In this document: piece after piece, positions 4,981-19,895 of the stretch
Layout: every line of letters starts with the position of its first letter
How positions within the stretch are numbered: position 1 is the first letter of the stretch
Assembly: GCA_049512315.1 (NCBI GenBank)
Contig: JBEKXF010000016.1
Coordinates: 1-64,000, forward strand
DNA from: Candidatus Aminicenantales bacterium
GTDB taxonomy: Bacteria > Acidobacteriota > Aminicenantia > Aminicenantales > Saccharicenantaceae
DNA length: 64,000 nucleotides
Direction of reading: 5' to 3'
Translations under genes and position numbers: made by a program
Notes under the pieces: generated by a model
What the model saw: the letters and a program-made list of their open reading frames with translations, nothing else
What the model was told of the DNA's origin: nothing
Databases searched by the model: none

Positions 4981-5103
4981 CGGGGTCAAATCTTCATTCT
5001 TGCACTTTTTGAGAGGGTTTTTTGGCCCATTTTTTATTTATCTTTAATTATTACTGCAACATACATGGGGTCAGGTTTTCATTTGACCCCGATCCTTGAC
5101 CCC
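4981..5103. repeat. Inverted-repeat element family 2, copy 1
   Basis: CGGGGTCAAATCTTCATTCTTGCA...ATGGGGTCAGG...TTTGACCCCG; colinear with 7688-7828; lies between convergent stops. Confidence 0.75.
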
Positions 5104-11808: not shown

Positions 11809-11930
11809 AAGCAATGAGGTCATTTCCGTCGGAAGGGAATTGCTGGAATCCGTGGCCGCGGAAGTGTATATTGAAGCCAATTTGGGACCGGCTGGAACGT
11901 GCGTTCCGGTCCGTTGAAGGAGGTTCGAGG

Positions 11931-13148
11931 ATGGACCAGGAAAAACCCAAGGTTTACGGCTACCGCTGGCTGGTCTTGCTCGCCTTTATGCTGATCGCCC
12001 TGATGACCCAGGTGTTGTGGATCACGTTCGCCCCGGTCACCAGCGCCGCGGCCCAGTTCTACGGGAAGTCGGACCTGATGATCGGCCTGTTATCCATGAG
12101 CTTCATGATCGTCTACATCCTGATGGTCCTGCCGTCGGCCTGGGCGATCGACACCTGGGGCTTCAAGGCGGCGGTCGGCCTCGGCGCCGTCCTGAGCGCC
12201 GTCTTCGCCCTGACCCGGGGGATCTTCGCCTCGAGCTTCACTGTCGTCCTGCTCTCGACGGTCGGCATCGCGATCGGCCAGCCGTTCGTCATCGGGGCCA
12301 TCACCAAGGTCGCGGCCCGCTGGTTCCCGGCTGAGGAGCGGGCGACGGCCTCCGGACTGGGCACGCTGGCCCTTTACCTAGGCCCCCTGGCGGCCATGCT
12401 CCTCGGCCCATACCTCGTCCTGCACGTCGGCCTGCCCCGCATGCTCCTCATCTACGGCATCGCCACGGCCGCGGCGGCGGTCATCTTCCTCGTCGTGGCC
12501 CGCGAGCACCCGCCCACCCCGGCGGGGCGCGACGAGCGGGTCCTGATGTTCGACGGCCTCAAGTCCATGCTCCGCCAGCGTGACTTCATCATCCTCCTGT
12601 TCATGTTTTTTGTGGGACTTGGCCTGTTCAACAGCGTCTCGACATGGGTCGAAGACATTATCCGCCCGCGCGGCTTTTCCATCACCCAGGCCGGAACGCT
12701 CGGCGGCCTGATGCTCGTCGGCGGGATCGTCGGCGCCGTCGTCGTCCCTCTCTTCTCCGACAAGCTCCGGCGCCGGAAGCCCTTCATCCTCCTGGCGCTC
12801 TCCGGTCTCCTCCCCGGCCTCCTAGGGATCACTTTCGCCGGGAGCTATGGGCTTTTGCTTCTGTCCGGATTCGCCTTCGGGTTCTTCCTGCTGAGCGCCG
12901 GGCCGATCGGCTTTCAGTACGGGGCCGAGATCACCCACCCGGCCCCGGAAGGGACGTCCAACAGCCTGCTCATGGTCATGGGGCAGGTCTCGGGGATTAT
13001 CTTCATCATGGGCATGGATGCGCTCAAGTCGCCGGCGACCAAATCCATGACCGTCCCGCTCCTGGCCCAGGCCGGGCTGATCGTCCTCGCCATCGTCTTC
13101 GCGGCCATGCTCCACGAGTCCCCGATCCACGCCAAGCAGGCGAGTTAG
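11931..13148 (+). CDS. MFS transporter
   Basis: GYRWLVL start, about 12 TM segments, RWFPAEERATASG; AAGGAGG RBS. Confidence 0.9.
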   Translation: MDQEKPKVYGYRWLVLLAFMLIALMTQVLWITFAPVTSAAAQFYGKSDLMIGLLSMSFMIVYILMVLPSAWAIDTWGFKAAVGLGAVLSAVFALTRGIFASSFTVVLLSTVGIAIGQPFVIGAITKVAARWFPAEERATASGLGTLALYLGPLAAMLLGPYLVLHVGLPRMLLIYGIATAAAAVIFLVVAREHPPTPAGRDERVLMFDGLKSMLRQRDFIILLFMFFVGLGLFNSVSTWVEDIIRPRGFSITQAGTLGGLMLVGGIVGAVVVPLFSDKLRRRKPFILLALSGLLPGLLGITFAGSYGLLLLSGFAFGFFLLSAGPIGFQYGAEITHPAPEGTSNSLLMVMGQVSGIIFIMGMDALKSPATKSMTVPLLAQAGLIVLAIVFAAMLHESPIHAKQAS

Positions 13149-13158
13149 ATCATTCGGG

Positions 13159-13398
13159 CGGGTGGCCCGGTGTATAAGAAGGGGCCGCGGGGAATGGCGG
13201 GAACATGATAAAACTGCTTGGCCATGCCAGGCGTTTTTTGATGAATCAGCGGACGCAGGGGGGATGTCCCGGAGAAAACATTGAGCGCGACGCGGGCACG
13301 GTTCCTCGACCAGCGGGAGAGGAGAGCGGAGCGATCACAGAGTGGGATTCCTCGCTGGGGAATCCCACGCTTTTCGGAGGGACTCCCTCCGAGTCCGC
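13159..13398 (+). ncRNA. Candidate structured ncRNA / structured repeat, copy A
   Basis: Homologous to 18541-18815 with compensatory stem changes; G-U pairs favour + strand. Confidence 0.5.
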
Positions 13399-13413
13399 AA
13401 CTTCTTTAAAGAA

Positions 13414-16400
13414 TCAGTTCGTTTGCGCCGCCTGGATCGGGTCGAGGCGGACCGAAACCTTGCCAGTGTAAGTCTTGCCGCCGACGGTCAGCTTGATGAC
13501 GTAAACCCCCGGCTCGGCCAGCTGCCCGCCCATGCCTCGGCCTCCGAAGCCCATCCCTCCTCCCGGGAACCCACCCATACCGGTGCGGATGATGGGCATG
13601 ACGCTGCGCTGGATTTCGGCGTACTTCCGGAAGTTCGTTCCGAACTGTTCGAGCCCGGTCTGGGCATTCTGGAGGGTTGTTTTCTGCTCGGCCGTGAGGT
13701 CGGCCCTCAGGAGAGCGGCCTCGATCTGCTTTTTGAGGTTCGAAACCATCCCCTGGACGGTCTGCGCGGGAGGGTCGAACCTGAGGTCCCAGGCGACCCG
13801 GATGATGCCGGGCTCGGCCGTGTCCAGGAGATAGGTCGTTTTGAGGGCTCCGGTGGCGTCCGCGATCTCGAGAGTGCCCGGCTTCTCGGGCTTGGCCTTG
13901 AGGTAGATGTGAATGAGGGCGCCGGCCGGCGGGTTCTCTCCCTTGAAGAACAGGTCGCCCCGGCTGTATCCGCCGCGGCCGATCTGGAGCCAGCGCGTGC
14001 CCGGCTTGCTGACCTCGAAGACGGCGGCGTCCTGGCCGAGGATGCTGTCGGTCACACCGCGGAGGGCCGTGATATCGTCCATGATCCAAATCCCGCGTCC
14101 GTGTGTCGCCGCGATGAGGTCGTTGTCGCGCGGGTGGATGAGGAGGTCGTGGACGGGGACCGTCGGCAGGTTGAGGCTCAGGCTCGACCAGGCCTTGCCG
14201 CCGTCGCGGCTGAAATACGCGCCGTACTCGGTCCCGAGGAAGAGAAGGTCCTTGTTCTTGAGATCCTCCCGGATGACGTAGACGGGCTGGCTGGCGGGCA
14301 GGTTCGCCATGATATTCGTCCAGGTCTTGCCGTAGTCCGTCGTCTTGAACACATAGGTGTGGAAATCGTCGCTGCGGTGCCCGTCGAAAGTCACGTAGCA
14401 CGTGCCGGCATCGAAATGCGAGGCCTCGACCCGGCTGACCCAGGTCTCCTTCGGGACGAGCGTGATCGCGGCCCGGACATTGGCCCAGGCAACCCCGTCG
14501 TTCCGGGTGAGCTGGACATTGCCGTCGTCCGTCCCGACCCAGATGAGGCCGGGGACGAGAGGTGATTCGGAGATGGTGATGATCGTGCAGTGCGTTTCGG
14601 CGCCGGTCACGTCGCGGGTGATGCCGCCGGAGGGCTTCGCGGGCGCGTACTTCGTCTTGTCGTTCGTCGTCAGGTCGGGGCTGATGATCATCCACTTGTC
14701 GCCGCGGTCCAGGGACCGGAAGAGGTTGTTGCCGCCGAAATAGACCGTCCTCGGATTGTGCGGGGACATGACGATGGGTGTGCTCCAGTTGAACCGGAAG
14801 GGCCCGGCCTGCCGCCCGGCCATGGCCATCATCGCCTCTTCGGGCGACGGCACCGGCTCGGCCTTGGCCGCGGGCTTCTGGCCGGGTGCCGGTGGCTTGG
14901 CCGCGGGCTTCGCGGCCGTTTTGGCCGAGGGCTTCGCGGCCGGCTTATCGGGATAATAGTCTTTGTAATTGACGACGTTCGCCTGCGTCGGCCGGATGCT
15001 CTTCATCTCCCGGGTCTCGACGTTCACCCGCAGGACCGATCCACCCTGGCTCTCGCAGTAGACGGTTCGCCAGTCGGTCGGGTCATTCTGGGTGTGGAAG
15101 CCGTCGCCGCCGCCGATATTGAACCAGAAGTCGGTCAGGATCGTGCCTTCGCGGCTCATCGAGGGGCCGCCCCAGGTGCCGTTGTCCTGGAGGCCGCCGT
15201 AAACGTAGTAGGGATCGCGCATGTCGGCGCTCACGGCATAGAACTGGGCGAGACAGAGGTTGTCGTAGAACACCCAGGTCTTGCCGTTGTCGTAGGTGAT
15301 GGACGCCCCGCCGTCCTGGCCGACGTAGAAGCGGTTCTTGTTCGTCGGGTCGAGCCACATGGCGTGGAAGTCGGGATGGAGCCCCCCGACTTGGGACCAG
15401 GTCTTGCCGCCGTCGTTCGAAAAGTTCAGGTTCGACGTCAGGAAGTAGGCCCACTTGTCCTCGAGAGGATTGATATAGATGTGGCTGTAGTAGAACGGCC
15501 GGTTGTTCATTCGATTCACGAACTGCCAGGTCGACCCGCCGTCTTCCGTCCGGTAAACGCCCGTGCCGAGCTTGGTCATGTCGGCGTAATCCGGGTTGGG
15601 CTTGGTCTGGTTGTCGGAAGACCGGATCTGGGCCGTCGGCTGGAAGGCGGCCTCGACGGCGGCCATGAGGACCTTCGGGTTCGAGCGGGAGATGGCCAGG
15701 CCGATCCGGCCCGTGTCGCCCGAGGGGAGCCCTTTAGTGAGCTTGGCCCAGGTCGCCCCACCGTCGGTCGTCTTGAAGATGCCACCGTTCGGGCCGCCGG
15801 AATCGAAGCGCCAGGGCTGGCGGAGCCGCTGCCAGAACGAGACATAGAGGATGTCCGGGTTCGTCGGGTCCATGACCAGGTCGATGGCGCCCGTCTTCCC
15901 GTCGTTGGGCAGTCCGCCGCCGAGCTTGGTCCACGTCTTGCCGCCGTCGGTCGTCTTGAACAGGCCGCGGTCCCCCGTGTATCCCCAGGGATGGCCGGAG
16001 GCGGCCGCGTAGACGATATTGGGATCGGTCGGGTGGGTCCGGATGCGGCCGATCGTCTGCGTCGTCTCCAGGCCCATCCGAGTGAAGGTCTTGCCGCCGT
16101 CGGTCGATTTATAGATGCCGTCGCCCCAGGAGACACTGTTCCGGACGCAGGCTTCGCCCGTCCCGACCCAGATGATGTTCGGGTCCTTCTGGAAGAACTT
16201 CACGTCGCCGATGGAGGACGAGCCGTACTTGTCGAAGATCGGCTCCCAGGTCGTGCCGGCGTTTACGGACTTGAAAACGCCGCCGGCCGCCCCGGCGACG
16301 AGGACGTTGGTGAAGTCGCTTTCGGCCGCCTCGAAGGCTGAGATGCGGCCGATCATGTTGGCCGGCCCGATGCTGCGCCATCTGAGGTGCTTGGCCAGGG

Positions 16401-16509
16401 CCTGGTTCTGGTCCTGGGGCGCGTTCTGGGCCGAGAACGGCCCGGCCAGGGCCAGGGTGATGAGCAGGAGCAAAGTCACGCGAAGCGCGGTTTTCAGCCG
16501 GTTTTTCAT
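13414..16509 (-). CDS. BNR/Asp-box (VPS10/sialidase-like beta-propeller) secreted protein
   Basis: Many SxDGGKTW Asp-box repeats; WRSIGPAN start; signal peptide. Confidence 0.88.
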   Translation of the reverse strand: MKNRLKTALRVTLLLLITLALAGPFSAQNAPQDQNQALAKHLRWRSIGPANMIGRISAFEAAESDFTNVLVAGAAGGVFKSVNAGTTWEPIFDKYGSSSIGDVKFFQKDPNIIWVGTGEACVRNSVSWGDGIYKSTDGGKTFTRMGLETTQTIGRIRTHPTDPNIVYAAASGHPWGYTGDRGLFKTTDGGKTWTKLGGGLPNDGKTGAIDLVMDPTNPDILYVSFWQRLRQPWRFDSGGPNGGIFKTTDGGATWAKLTKGLPSGDTGRIGLAISRSNPKVLMAAVEAAFQPTAQIRSSDNQTKPNPDYADMTKLGTGVYRTEDGGSTWQFVNRMNNRPFYYSHIYINPLEDKWAYFLTSNLNFSNDGGKTWSQVGGLHPDFHAMWLDPTNKNRFYVGQDGGASITYDNGKTWVFYDNLCLAQFYAVSADMRDPYYVYGGLQDNGTWGGPSMSREGTILTDFWFNIGGGDGFHTQNDPTDWRTVYCESQGGSVLRVNVETREMKSIRPTQANVVNYKDYYPDKPAAKPSAKTAAKPAAKPPAPGQKPAAKAEPVPSPEEAMMAMAGRQAGPFRFNWSTPIVMSPHNPRTVYFGGNNLFRSLDRGDKWMIISPDLTTNDKTKYAPAKPSGGITRDVTGAETHCTIITISESPLVPGLIWVGTDDGNVQLTRNDGVAWANVRAAITLVPKETWVSRVEASHFDAGTCYVTFDGHRSDDFHTYVFKTTDYGKTWTNIMANLPASQPVYVIREDLKNKDLLFLGTEYGAYFSRDGGKAWSSLSLNLPTVPVHDLLIHPRDNDLIAATHGRGIWIMDDITALRGVTDSILGQDAAVFEVSKPGTRWLQIGRGGYSRGDLFFKGENPPAGALIHIYLKAKPEKPGTLEIADATGALKTTYLLDTAEPGIIRVAWDLRFDPPAQTVQGMVSNLKKQIEAALLRADLTAEQKTTLQNAQTGLEQFGTNFRKYAEIQRSVMPIIRTGMGGFPGGGMGFGGRGMGGQLAEPGVYVIKLTVGGKTYTGKVSVRLDPIQAAQTN

Positions 16510-16574
16510 GGGGTCCTCCTTGGGGAAACTAGGGGCGAATTATAACGAAGCTCAGGTTCGGTGCGCAAGGGCTG

Positions 16575-17213
16575 CTAGCGACGATTGATCAGCTTCAGGA
16601 CGGCTTCTAGCGAAGCCACGTCCGGCTGCCCTTCGGCCGTCTCCTTGCCCGGGGCGAGAGAGGCATAGGTCAGGGGCGCGCCGAAGAAAGGTCCGGCGAT
16701 CCTGGTGATGAGGCCGAGCTCGCCGAGGCCAAGGGCGACGACGTTCTTCCGCGTTTCGTAAAGGGAGAAAAGCCGGGCGCAATCCTGGACGCTCTGAACG
16801 CGGCAGATGATCTTGGCGATGCTGGCCCCCAGGTCAAAGCATTCCTCGATCATAAGAAGAAGGATCTGTTTTAACGGTGTCTCGGTGTAGTTGTGGTAGG
16901 TGACGATGATCCGGCAATGATTCTCCCTGGCGGCCGCCAATATCGGATCCCGGAATTGCGGGGAGGACTCGAGCTCGATATCCACGTAAGCCGCTCCGGC
17001 CGAGATCGCGGTCAGGAGGGCCGCCATTCTGGCGTCGTCGGGACGCGTCCCCGGACGGCACGTGGCGACCAGCTTGAGCGGGGCGGAAAAAAGCTCCTTG
17101 ATCTCGACGAGCGACAGGCCGGTCTTGTCGATCCGGATCTCGGCCAGCTCGAGCCCCTTCAGCGCGGCCCGGCATTCATCGAGGGTGGGTTCGGCGATGC
17201 TGACACAGATCAT
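16575..17213 (-). CDS. aroD: Type I 3-dehydroquinate dehydratase
   Basis: MICVSI, EIRID, ATCR, YVDIE, YHNYTETP, AKI, TAEGQ motifs; GGAGGAG RBS. Confidence 0.85.
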   Translation of the reverse strand: MICVSIAEPTLDECRAALKGLELAEIRIDKTGLSLVEIKELFSAPLKLVATCRPGTRPDDARMAALLTAISAGAAYVDIELESSPQFRDPILAAARENHCRIIVTYHNYTETPLKQILLLMIEECFDLGASIAKIICRVQSVQDCARLFSLYETRKNVVALGLGELGLITRIAGPFFGAPLTYASLAPGKETAEGQPDVASLEAVLKLINRR

Positions 17214-17328
17214 GAGTTTACTCCTCCCCACTTATTAGACGGCGAGACAGCCGCTTTCTTCCACGTCGGGGCGGAAGGATCATATCACATGACTTTTCCC
17301 GAGAATAGGCCTGGCCGGGACGTCCCGG

Positions 17329-18412
17329 CTAGGATCTGTCCGCTTTCAAAGCCGCGAGGCTCAGGATGAGGATCGCCGCGGCGCACATTACTTTGGCGGC
17401 GTCGATCGCGAAGACCCCGGCGGCGAGCGCGATCCTCCTGAAAACGTCCACGTAGTGAAACGAAAGGGCCCCGGCCAAAGACCCGCCCAGGTAAAGGGCC
17501 AGCACCGCCCCGACCGCGGTGATATGGGGCCGGACCCGTTTTCGCTTGACTGCCCTCACGGCCAGGAAAAGAAGGCCGACCATCACGGCCGCGATGAGGG
17601 CCAGGAGGACCCTCTGGTAGGACTGCCGGGCATAATAGACGTCCATCCCGACGATGATTTTTCTCCCCCATTCCGACAAGCGTCCTCCGACATGGAAGGC
17701 CTCACAGAAGACGCCCAGAAAGAGAACGGCGGCAGAGGCCGCCCAGAGCCGCCACTCCCCTTCCGCGCCGGGGAGACGGGCCGACCGCCGGCGGGCCGGG
17801 TTGGCCGCGCAGACCAGTCCGCCTGAAACGATCAGGACGAGGAGGGCAAGCCGGAACGCGGCGGCTGAATTGCGGAAGACCTCGGGCTCGGGCGGCCGTG
17901 AGCCGGGCCGGAAGGGGGTCTCCGGATTGGGTGTGTTCGAGTTCAAGAAGGCCCGGACTCTCCGGAAGATCGTCTCGCCGGCGCGTCCTTGTATCCGCTT
18001 GACCGGGATGCCCTCAGTGTTGGCGCCATGCGTCCTCGTCCGCCAATCTCCCGTCGCTGACACCCATATGACCAGCTGGACGAAGGCCATCTTCTCCTGC
18101 TCCGTACGGATACGTGCCGCTGCTTTGAACGGGGATAGGCGGGCTTGGCGCCAGCAGGCGTCCGACCGCCATATAGTTTTTACCCAGCAGGTAGACATTT
18201 ACCACGAGATGAGATGATTCCGGCACGTTCCCGAGCGTAACGCGGACATCCATGGGGCTGCCCACAACGGCATATCGGGGCGCTTCAACGGTCAGCTAGT
18301 CCGCATAGGGAGAGTGGAACAGCTTGAGGAAAGCCCAAACGGCAAGAAAGGCAAATACGAAAAGAGCCAGGAGAAGGAAGCCCCTCCGGGTTTTATTACG
18401 TTTCGGCTCCAT
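17329..18412 (-). pseudogene. Disrupted membrane-protein gene (in-frame TAG plus frameshift)
   Basis: ATG 18412 MEPKRNKTRRGFLLLALFVFAFLAVWAF; TAG at 18298-18296; reading continues, then shifts frame near 18100 into a TM-rich C-terminus ending 17329. Confidence 0.6.
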
Positions 18413-18540
18413 TTTTTGCCCTAGATCCGTCGGGGCAAAACATCTCGAAGTCCATCGAAAGCCCCGCCGGCACTCGAGATGTTAATTCACCGCCTCCGCG
18501 GAAGTCAAACCGCAACTTAATTCGTTTATAAATGAGAAGA

Positions 18541-18815
18541 CGGGTGGCACGGTACATAAAGAGGGGCTTTGGGGAATGGTCGGAACGTCATTCGCGGTTA
18601 GGTCTTCCCAAAGCGTTTTTTAAAGATTGAGGCTTCGGGGGCGGCTGAAGCGATAGAAAAAAAGTGCGCAGGGGGTGTTCCCGGAGGAGGGCGTGTGGAG
18701 GGCCGAGCGGGCACGGATCCTCGACCAGAGGGCGAGGAGAGCGAGGCCTGGAACCGAAGCGGGTTTGGCTCGGCGGGACAAACCCGCGACCCGACGGAGG
18801 GAATCCCCCGAGCTC
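18541..18815 (+). ncRNA. Candidate structured ncRNA / structured repeat, copy B
   Basis: 39/51 identity to 13159-13209 and 34/37 to 13292-13328; covarying stems. Confidence 0.5.
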
Positions 18816-18861
18816 AACCTCATTTGAAGGCTGAAGCCGTCACCGAAGCTCGACAACCTCA

Positions 18862-18891
18862 TTGACAGGACGCGGCGGCCGGCGCTATAGT
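18862..18891 (+). promoter_or_regulatory. Sigma70-type promoter of pyrB
   Basis: TTGACA-18 nt-TATAGT upstream of AAGGAG/ATG 18915. Confidence 0.65.
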
Positions 18892-18914
18892 CCTTGCGGA
18901 CAAAAGGAGCCAAC

Positions 18915-19895
18915 ATGCCCACGAAAGCCAAGAGCCCCCACCTCCCCTTCGGCGACCAGCAGACGGCACCGTGGTACGGCAAGGATATCCTTTCGGTCAA
19001 GCAGTTCAGCCGGGCGGACCTCGAATACATCTTCGGCGTCGCCCACGAGATGCGGAACATGGTCGAGCGGGTCGGCACCTTCGACCTCCTCAAGGGCAAG
19101 ATCCTGGCGAACCTGTTTTACGAGCCGTCCACGCGGACCTCGTCGTCCTTCATGGCGGCCATGCAGCGGCTCGGCGGGGCCGTGATCCCCATCAGCGAAG
19201 TGAAATATTCTTCTGTCGCCAAGGGCGAGAGCCTGCCCGACACGGTCCGGACGCTCGGATGCTACGCCGATGTGATCGTCATCCGGCATCCCGAGGTCGG
19301 CTCGGCCGCCCTGGCCGCCAAGCATGCCAAAAAGCCGGTCATCAACGCGGGCGACGGTGTCGGCGAGCATCCGACCCAGGCCCTCCTCGACACCTTCACG
19401 ATCCGCGAGGAGCTGGGGACCCTCGACGACCTGACCGTGACCATGCTCGGCGACCTCAAGTACGGCCGAACGGTCCATTCCCTGGCCCGGCTCATGACGC
19501 GGTTCGACGGGACCCGTCTGAACTATGTCTCTCCCGACATCCTGCGGATGCCCAAGGACGTCATGGACGAAGTCGCGTCAAAGGACGTACCCCAGGCCGA
19601 ATACACGTCGCTCGAAAAGGCCCTTCCCGAAACCGACGTCCTCTACGTGACCCGCGTCCAGAGGGAGCGATTCGAGGACCCGGCCGTCTACGAGAGGGTG
19701 AAGGATGCTTTCGTCGTCAACCCCGAGGTCATGAAGCCGTCCAAGGACCGGATGATCGTCATGCACCCCCTGCCCCGCGTCACCGAGATCAGCCAGGATT
19801 TCGACGATGATCCGCGGGCGGCCTATTTCCGTCAGATGGAGTACGGGCTCTACGTCCGGATGGCCCTCCTGGCCATGGTCCTCGGCAAGGCCTGA
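18915..19895 (+). CDS. pyrB: Aspartate carbamoyltransferase catalytic subunit
   Basis: [47 protein letters not shown]. Confidence 0.96.

Follow-up and report, generated by a model that had tools for sequence, protein, structure and literature searches.

The described systems closest to the sequences analysed here are short non-coding repeats in the extragenic DNA of other bacteria. In the Bacillus cereus group, bcr1 is a dispersed, non-coding element of ~155 nt that is flanked by 5-bp direct repeats and transcribed, whose positions are not conserved between close relatives and whose branched, cruciform-like fold is kept by compensatory changes (PMC3184786, in the part of that article available to us). 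REPINs are non-autonomous, hairpin-forming extragenic repeats for which the hairpin, in single-stranded DNA or mRNA, is the replicative unit; the arms, which hold the conserved REP, are conserved together, and the spacer between them is variable (PMC3116915, from the available part of the article). A REP-RAYT system would be recognised by a RAYT (Y1 transposase) gene that the repeat itself flanks and accompanies in its distribution, and by conserved REP palindromes of 20-40 nt set as inverted doublets around a variable spacer. Mosaics of a few modules in extragenic space are formed by the BIMEs of enterobacteria and the NIMEs of Neisseria, the latter with constant short inverted ends and variable interiors. 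ERIC/IRU, Correia/NEMIS, RUP, BOX and SPRITE-type repeats are imperfect palindromes of 100-250 nt that form long stem-loops, lie in intergenic regions near convergent gene ends and are conserved across related species, and where the mechanics of such repeats are known, they involve cognate transposases and the duplication of a TA or other target (both groups as covered by the available part of PMC3184786; the details on ERIC are general background and not drawn from it).

We analysed two sequences, copies A and B, in a stretch of 64,000 nt (hereafter the window) from a Candidatus Aminicenantales bacterium (GenBank assembly GCA_049512315.1, contig JBEKXF010000016.1). Both probably belong, A as an A-type and B as a B-type member, to a non-autonomous, hairpin-structured, mosaic family of intergenic repeats that extends across Aminicenantales and resembles REPINs, BIMEs and bcr1. 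The family is undescribed but of a familiar bacterial repeat kind, and its three-armed tip is unusually well conserved. As in bcr1, positions are not conserved between close relatives and a branched fold is maintained; in contrast to bcr1, no duplication was found at the ends, the two show no sequence relationship and come from different phyla, and only the present family is nested in outer palindromic arms. The copies are also similar to REPINs, including the joint conservation of both arms, but here it is the arms that vary and the tip that is conserved, and other repeat families flank the RAYT-like genes found in this genome. The mosaic build and the constant ends around variable interiors recall BIMEs and NIMEs, whose modules are unrelated in sequence to those found here; one long nested hairpin with a three-way-junction tip is seen only in the present family, for which no binding protein or phage link is known. 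Size, shape and intergenic placement near convergent gene ends are shared with the ERIC-like palindromes, as is conservation across related species, whereas neither target duplications nor cognate transposases were found here.

Two copies in the window and their parts

The initial annotation of the window had described A and B as two diverged copies of a ~250-nt element sharing a 5' block and a core. A recount in the sequence gave the same identities, 39/51 for the 5' block (13159-13209 in A, 18541-18591 in B) and 34/37 for the core (13292-13328 and 18707-18743), and each pairing that had been named was located: the hairpin GTGGGATTC at 13342 with GAATCCCAC at 13360 in A and its variant GCGGGTTTG at 18759 with CAAACCCGC at 18779 in B, the closing stem GTCCC (13266)/GGGAC (13379) in A and TTCCC (18678)/GGGAA (18799) in B, the TCCTC/GAGGA hairpin in both copies, and the T6 runs (from 13234 in A and 18616 in B). 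This similarity is far beyond chance, and the family recurs elsewhere in the genome and in many others. The count of two copies did not hold, since the same 3.55-Mb genome carries 9 full cores, 2 partial cores and ~20 further related loci. Nor do the ~250 nt form a single unit; what had been read as one element consists of two separable parts, an outer arm (module 1) and the core (Table 1).

A has a 5' outer arm without a 3' counterpart, as the convergent gene directly adjoins it on that side. B has outer arms of its own B-type, and an unpaired module 1 lies further out. The B-type arms are partly complementary, which suggests that they may pair; the 5' arm is kept in the B orthologue of a same-genus genome, G003, and in other B-type copies. 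A direct repeat was also seen beside B, at 18816-18831 and 18854-18869 (CAACCTCATTTGAAGG and CAACCTCATTGACAGG). The first unit forms the conserved 3' end of the B-type element, and the second shares nucleotides with the -35 box of the promoter of the carbamoyltransferase gene. Chance, a duplication made at insertion and the remnant of another copy are possible explanations.

Table 1. Features of copies A and B and their neighbours in the window, with type ii interiors elsewhere in the same genome (G000).
Feature	Position	Strand	Remarks
MFS transporter gene	11814-13148	+	left of A
Copy A, module 1	13159-13240	+	5' outer arm of composite palindrome; from alignment with B and other copies
Module 1 of A, terminator-like stem and T6	13215-13233, then 13234-13239	+	directly after MFS stop codon
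Copy A, core (A-type)	13249-13398	+	CM match 13249-13401, 95 bits, full model
A core, P1	13249-13270 with 13379-13398		
A core, P2 tip hairpin	13303-13307 / 13319-13323		P2 with conserved internal loop
A core, P3 hairpin	13342-13353 / 13357-13368		
BNR/sortilin-like gene	13414-16509	-	right of A, convergent
Copy B, module 1	18541-18621	+	stem, then T6 18616-18621
Copy B, 5' outer arm (B-type-specific)	18626-18663	+	GAGGCTTCGG..GGCTGAAGCGATAGAA..
Copy B, core (B-type)	18664-18818	+	CM match 18662-18820, 123.6 bits
B core, P2 tip hairpin	~18717-18738		
B core, P3 hairpin	18759-18767 / 18779-18787		
Copy B, 3' outer arm	18819-18853	+	..GAAGGCTGAAGCCGTCACCGAAGCTC; kept in G003 and other B-type copies
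Carbamoyltransferase promoter, sigma-70-like	18862-18891	+	TTGACA, 18 nt, TATAGT; 11/12 matches; kept in G003
Type ii interiors (G000)	C6:31330-31577; C57:7855-8100; C3:89300-89529; others		

A covarying core with an invariant tip

The core follows the same plan across genera: a closing stem, P1, of at least 20 pairs, a short junction, P2, a second junction and P3. P2 consists of a 5-bp stem, a tandem G.A, two G-C pairs, an asymmetric loop with GCGGGCAnGG on its long side, and a tip hairpin, and the 11-nt loop of P3 contains CTCGCnGGG. The retention of stems by compensatory change, first claimed from A and B, was borne out by strong covariation in a larger alignment of 70 sequences, for which a structure of 47 pairs was set by hand. 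Paired cells made up 83.6%, against 70.8% in shuffles, and 415 double-change cells were counted against 127 ± 8.5 (none of 500 shuffles reached 415), statistics that overstate significance because the sequences are related. Controls with slid partners gave 67-123 double-change cells, and changes on both sides occurred in 35 of the 47 pairs, two of which had been set one column off (invariant G-C pairs, with helix 4 at 0% paired), as they also are in model R1.

Most rows of the 70-sequence alignment had been fetched with a pattern that fixes 25 bases of P2, and the invariance seen in it (alignment A3) is therefore partly by construction. An independent set was chosen to remove this circularity, comprising 20 covariance-model (CM) hits from 10 other genomes, only one of which fits the text pattern. 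Invariant in this set were the CGT of the junction, GCGGGCAnGG, the GAGC that follows the tip hairpin and the G..GGG of the P3 loop, and the P2 tip hairpin varied in sequence and length with its arms always complementary. Thus, the most conserved part of the element is its tip and not its ends, the arms varying between copies with compensatory change.

For A, the RNA fold of the core was predicted at -79.6 kcal/mol (z -5.5) on the + strand and -65.6 (z -3.1) on the opposite strand, and for B at -75.5 (z -2.4) and -60.0 (z -0.8), respectively. Two further ideas about P2 and P3 were dropped. First, a short peptide starting at the ATG that low-GC copies have in P2 was rejected, as A, B and numerous further copies have ACG in its place. 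Second, a kissing interaction between the P2 and P3 loops was seen, by reading, only in A and is not conserved.

One strand is favoured by the predicted fold, as RNA or as single-stranded DNA. With RNA parameters, 87 of the 88 copies fold more stably on the + strand (mean -81.6 vs -68.0 kcal/mol), and with DNA parameters 86 of the 88 do. The difference between strands was -14.3 kcal/mol against -8.3 in shuffles (z -6.9 for + and -5.7 for -), and base composition accounts for part of the + strand's advantage. The + strand had originally been preferred on the grounds of G-U pairs, an argument that proved weak: the non-Watson-Crick cells in 82 CM-aligned rows comprise 73 G-U against 44 A-C, next to 268 G.A/A.G and 85 others. 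The G.A cells fall at four fixed places (outer P1, mid P1, the P2 stem and the P2 tip), at each of which G.A alternates with Watson-Crick pairs. These mismatches are all purine-purine on the + strand and therefore pyrimidine-pyrimidine on the other.

Modules combined within a nested palindrome

BLAST of A against its own genome (3.55 Mb in 77 contigs) matched 51 places, and iterated nhmmer searches recovered 36 loci starting from A and 41 from B; the full and partial cores given above were counted with a CM built from the 70 sequences. An alignment of 25 loci revealed a modular build in which ends are held in common and interiors are alternatives. The core is bounded by inverted ends, which in A-type copies are GCGGACGCAGGGGGGATGTCCC pairing with GGGACTCCCYCCGAGTCCGC (~20/23) and in B-type copies are related to these. 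Between the ends lies the short interior seen in A and B, a longer and unrelated "type ii" interior, or both together. Module 1 is found at only some loci, and some copies carry a further downstream module. Copies are thus put together in different ways from module 1, ends of the A- or B-type, the short core, the downstream module and the type ii interior, and several stem variants coexist in one genome.

The type ii interior is ~130 nt long and replaces P2-P3 between the same ends. It has hairpins of its own, GGGACAGTCCC and CAGAAGTGCGGCTCCGAGCCGC..CACTTCTG, and the motif GGGACAGTCCC also stands alone at the same sites in other species. An A+T-rich stretch (for example window 18520-18540; TTATAAATGAG, ATAATCTAAAATAAAAATAAC, CTTAATAAAAAC) regularly lies 5' of module 1 in this genome, which has ~60% G+C. 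It could reflect an insertion preference or a -10-like box; a scan for promoter consensus sequences found no full promoter there. A sigma-54 or sigma-70 promoter within module 1 was rejected, as the consensus scan was empty and the spacing is not conserved, because some copies carry insertions at that point.

The downstream module is an inverted repeat of module 1, with AGGGCC..GGGGATGGCC and GGCCATCCCC..GGCCCT as the outermost arms. On contig C4, a complete composite of 331 nt folds into one long hairpin that terminates in the P2/P3 tip (-175 kcal/mol, z -6.9). The complete unit is thus a nested imperfect palindrome of up to ~330 nt, made of outer arms, P1 and a non-palindromic two-hairpin tip. 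By itself, module 1 does not fold unusually well (z -1.05 and -0.5), and it holds the only terminator-like stem within the family. In low-GC MAGs, many copies consist of a full element inside an inverted, gutted copy of itself, and other copies have extra outer stems.

Distribution among Aminicenantes

A-like DNA was detected by BLAST in 17 of 40 relatives. With the CM, scoring up to 19 candidates per genome, the core was found in 34 of 151 genomes of the class, nearly all of one order: in 6/25 genomes of family f1, 13/19 of f6, 6/7 of f3, 5/5 of f7, 1/3 of f9 and the single genomes of f4 and f15, the last being the one match in another order. The CM search did not find the core in f11 (0/65), f5, f10, f12, f13 or f14. 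When all candidates were scored in four near-closed genomes, 39, 15, 10 and 7 matches were obtained, and a pattern scan of one genome per species gave at least 123 stretches. Among the stretches listed, record titles name Candidatus Aminicenantes or Aminicenantales MAGs, the others being "uncultured Eubacteriales", a loose label, and one "Saccharibacteria". The core pattern had no match among 2.9 million viral contigs, and carriage by phages was rejected on this result.

No Rfam (release 15) family matched the window at gathering scores, nor did any match window 12500-19500 at up to E=10, in agreement with the earlier statement that the element is not a known RNA family.

The core of low-GC Aminicenantes MAGs is in places interrupted by an unrelated G+C-rich element, which is inserted in either orientation at two fixed positions, inside P3 (L048, L070, L073, L132) and after P2 (L059, L125, L127, L069). 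It contains ..GGGGGAGCCGAGGGGGTGTGTCCCCTCGGTCGCAGGGCGCAAGCCCGAGAAGGGGAGG.., and 300 nt of it have been seen. An Rfam search of copies with this insert gave only sub-threshold chance matches.

Turnover between sister species

We compared 20 copies in G003, whose flanking genes are ~90% identical to those of the genome studied here, with their sites in the latter. Only four copies are common to both genomes, and two that are full in G003 are present here as mini forms. At one site joined outer arms alone are found here, and the remaining 13 sites have a far shorter gap here (3-187 nt vs 160-759 nt). The mini form (CGGACTCCCTCCGAGTCCGC) equals a full copy minus everything between two GGAC words, and such 20-nt hairpins occur at four further loci. 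The site of A in G003 has only a 31-nt hairpin of end sequences, without module 1. B, on the other hand, is orthologous in G003 (core ~94% identical by our own count on the alignment), with a compensatory change at the P2 tip from TCCTCG..CGAGGA to TCCCCG..CGGGGA, while its module 1 is replaced there by unrelated sequence.

The exchange of interiors is also seen over wider comparisons. A single 19-nt operon spacer was found in a different state in each of five species, being empty in one and holding an unrelated hairpin, a mini copy, a full core or module 1 with another interior and the downstream module in the others. At a second site, constant ends enclose the core, a type ii interior or nothing. 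The sites compared do not polarise the change between full and mini forms, which may be insertion into mini hairpins or deletion from full copies. No target-site duplication was found at the 8 readable of 10 filled-versus-empty junctions between G003 and the present genome; the alignments of L246 and L254, which were mis-oriented, were left out. Multiple copies, modularity, nesting and presence/absence at orthologous sites of sister species lend support to the earlier suggestion of a folded mobile unit.

Neighbouring genes, promoters and orientation

Gene calls (2628 genes, 84% coding, from a simple script of our own) and Pfam matches confirmed that A lies between convergent and B between divergent genes. 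The right-hand gene of B's divergent pair is an aspartate/ornithine carbamoyltransferase (pyrB), and its promoter lies downstream of B, which is therefore not part of that mRNA and not its leader. The original argument against a simple cis-leader holds more widely, as neighbours are unrelated and there is no orientation bias. On the other side of B, a promoter-like site for the leftward gene was observed on the - strand at 18508-18479 (TTGACT, 18 nt, TAACAT). A non-coding block of ~60 nt at 18454-18512 is ~88% identical in G003, where its surroundings are not conserved. The called start of the leftward gene (18198) is ~280 nt off, and there may therefore be a long leader or a small unannotated gene.

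In this genome, 22 copies have a called gene on either side: the neighbours are convergent for 8 copies and divergent for 4, and between co-directional genes 5 copies are sense and 5 antisense. Among 101 loci from other MAGs, 46 of which had no strand call on either flank, the upstream gene was on the same strand in 13 and the opposite strand in 17, and the downstream gene in 19 and 17, respectively. A bias towards one replication strand, as expected of HUH-type single-strand transposition, was rejected: in closed genomes, with replichores judged from sparse and noisy GC-skew samples, the folding strand was on the lagging-sequence strand in 7/7 copies of G025, 7/14 of G027 and 3/9 of G039, or 17/30 in total. 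Copies thus have no consistent orientation with respect to transcription or replication.

The 45 genes adjoining 23 copies are all ordinary, 39 of them with Pfam matches, and copies were shown to have no consistent part in the expression signals of neighbouring genes. Several candidate identities were rejected in this context. A riboswitch or a leader of a gene family does not fit downstream ORFs and neighbours that are unrelated housekeeping genes, nor the lack of a fixed orientation. An independent small-RNA gene is contradicted by a consensus scan that finds promoters only for the flanking genes, and the flanks of other copies are unrelated. An integron attC array was dismissed, as the copies occur singly among housekeeping genes and are scattered across many contigs.

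No mobilising enzyme found with the copies

A neighbouring nuclease, reverse transcriptase or transposase had been suggested as something to look for at other copies. None of the 45 proteins adjoining the 23 copies is a transposase, integrase or reverse transcriptase, no coding element with the same ends was seen, and in analyses that covered these neighbours and the Y1 and IS110 families no IS with these ends was found. The six Y1 (IS200/RAYT-like) genes of the genome have other short repeat families at their sides and none of the present repeats within 1.5 kb. Of the 151 class genomes, 123 have Y1 genes, including all 25 of f1, 19 of which are without the core; no Y1 gene was found in 4 of the 34 core-bearing genomes (87-92% complete). 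We thus rejected a RAYT link, with Y1 presence being independent of the core. A link to IS110 was rejected as well, since 13 of 23 core-bearing genomes in a separate sample had no IS110 match.

Two of the other short families have copies in the window, at 2110-2202 and 4982-5014. Both are found on many contigs of this genome and, as inverted pairs, on either side of RAYT-like Y1 genes (C18:60719-61042 and C6:22269-22592); they resemble classical REP/RAYT systems and differ from the folded family. A further observation concerns G027:C1, closed and of the same order, in which eleven near-identical IS200-like Y1 genes scored 136.8-137.2 bits. This IS200 family looks active and has no positional relation to the 15 cores of G027.

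Origin and possible function

The reading that we favour, a mosaic repeat family of the REPIN, BIME and bcr1 kind, would have these sequences spread and persist as selfish DNA by way of a folded single strand kept under selection, either single-stranded DNA at replication or repair or a transcript. The invariant tip would then be the recognition site of a trans-acting factor. Module exchange probably proceeds by template switching or gene conversion at shared arms: such events between dispersed copies could produce both the shuffling of modules and the full, mini and other-interior states, with conserved arms and short shared motifs serving as the homology for exchange. Individual copies may have acquired secondary roles, either in termination, for which module 1 of A is a candidate, or in insulation upstream of promoters. 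What sets the family apart from its analogues is a conserved tip rather than conserved ends, the lack of any duplication or cognate enzyme in our searches, and the exchange of interiors at constant ends.

Some findings look more like a functional RNA or a protein-binding fold than a selfish repeat, namely the conservation of unpaired bases across families and in one other order, and the ~94% identity of the B core with compensatory change. The core may accordingly be a functional structured RNA, a three-way-junction ncRNA or cis-acting module of ~150 nt (for example a protein-binding RNA, a self-cleaving ribozyme or an mRNA-end element) that rides on, or once was, a mobile repeat. We consider this unlikely, yet give it a real share because of the invariant unpaired bases, which stand as single strands between covarying helices of variable length. 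Also consistent with such an RNA are the placement of all four conserved tandem G.A sites on one strand, the excess of G-U over A-C cells, the greater + strand stability in all but one of the 88 copies, and the loss of module 1 next to the conserved B core, although base composition makes up part of the strand asymmetry. The reading is opposed by the absence of any orientation preference (5 sense and 5 antisense; 13/17 upstream and 19/17 downstream), by B lying upstream of the pyrB promoter, by the lack of a promoter in the repeated unit, by the fact that most copies are not common to sister species, and by interiors, P2 and P3 included, that are deleted or replaced at the same site. As no Rfam family matches the core, a functional RNA would be a new one.

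A bolder proposal, which we regard as doubtful for its two versions taken jointly, is that the invariant three-way-junction tip (the P3 loop, the four tandem G.A sites and P2 with its GCGGGCAnGG loop) constitutes an active nucleic-acid module. In one version it would be a functional RNA of a new class, with self-cleaving activity or a conserved protein partner, and would multiply through genomes. Alternatively, it might be the recognition element of a new kind of DNA movement independent of transposase families, a "hairpin-tip cassette exchange" in which existing hairpins would gain and lose cassettes at their tips; this would explain the occurrence of full, mini and other-interior states at the same site without target duplications.

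It is improbable that the copies are host elements acting in cis at the DNA level, cruciform-prone or protein-bound and independent of orientation, with roles as insulators upstream of promoters, bidirectional terminators between convergent genes or landmarks of recombination or replication. There is a precedent in BIMEs, which bind IHF and gyrase (PMC3184786, in its available part), and the lack of orientation bias towards transcription, the lack of a consistent bias towards replication (17/30 in three closed genomes) and the position of 8/22 copies between convergent genes and of others just upstream of promoters would all agree with it. The strands, though, fold unequally, since the purine-purine mismatches are on one strand only; the stem variants within one genome do not suit a single protein reading duplex sequence; and copies that turn over so readily between sister species are hard to reconcile with fixed host functions at particular loci. 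Finally, a classical MITE, that is a deletion derivative of a DDE-transposase IS moved in trans through its terminal inverted repeats with target-site duplications, is very improbable: the units are small, non-coding, multi-copy and polymorphic for presence and do have terminal inverted repeats (P1 arms and outer arms), but junctions lack a consistent duplication, arms differ within one genome with compensatory change and do not form one conserved transposase site, the tip and not the ends is most conserved, and neither a coding element with the same ends nor a transposase beside any of the 23 copies was seen.

Implications for Aminicenantes genomes

Aminicenantes are abundant and uncultured, and in the literature on their repetitive DNA and on intergenic repeats of Acidobacteria we found no published account of Aminicenantes repeats. 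If the mosaic repeat family is what it appears to be, it adds one more member to the REP/MITE-like families, to be masked when the intergenic regions of these genomes are screened for RNA genes. It also offers a marker for strain typing and for assembly breaks in Aminicenantes MAGs, and its core is a well-defined candidate motif of 150 nt, with strong covariation, for RNA or single-stranded DNA biochemistry. Should the tip prove to be a ribozyme, a protein-binding RNA or the handle of a new route of mobilisation, it would represent a new mechanism. Moreover, the family provides a clean natural experiment in which to study the maintenance, by selection, of a single-strand fold in selfish DNA.
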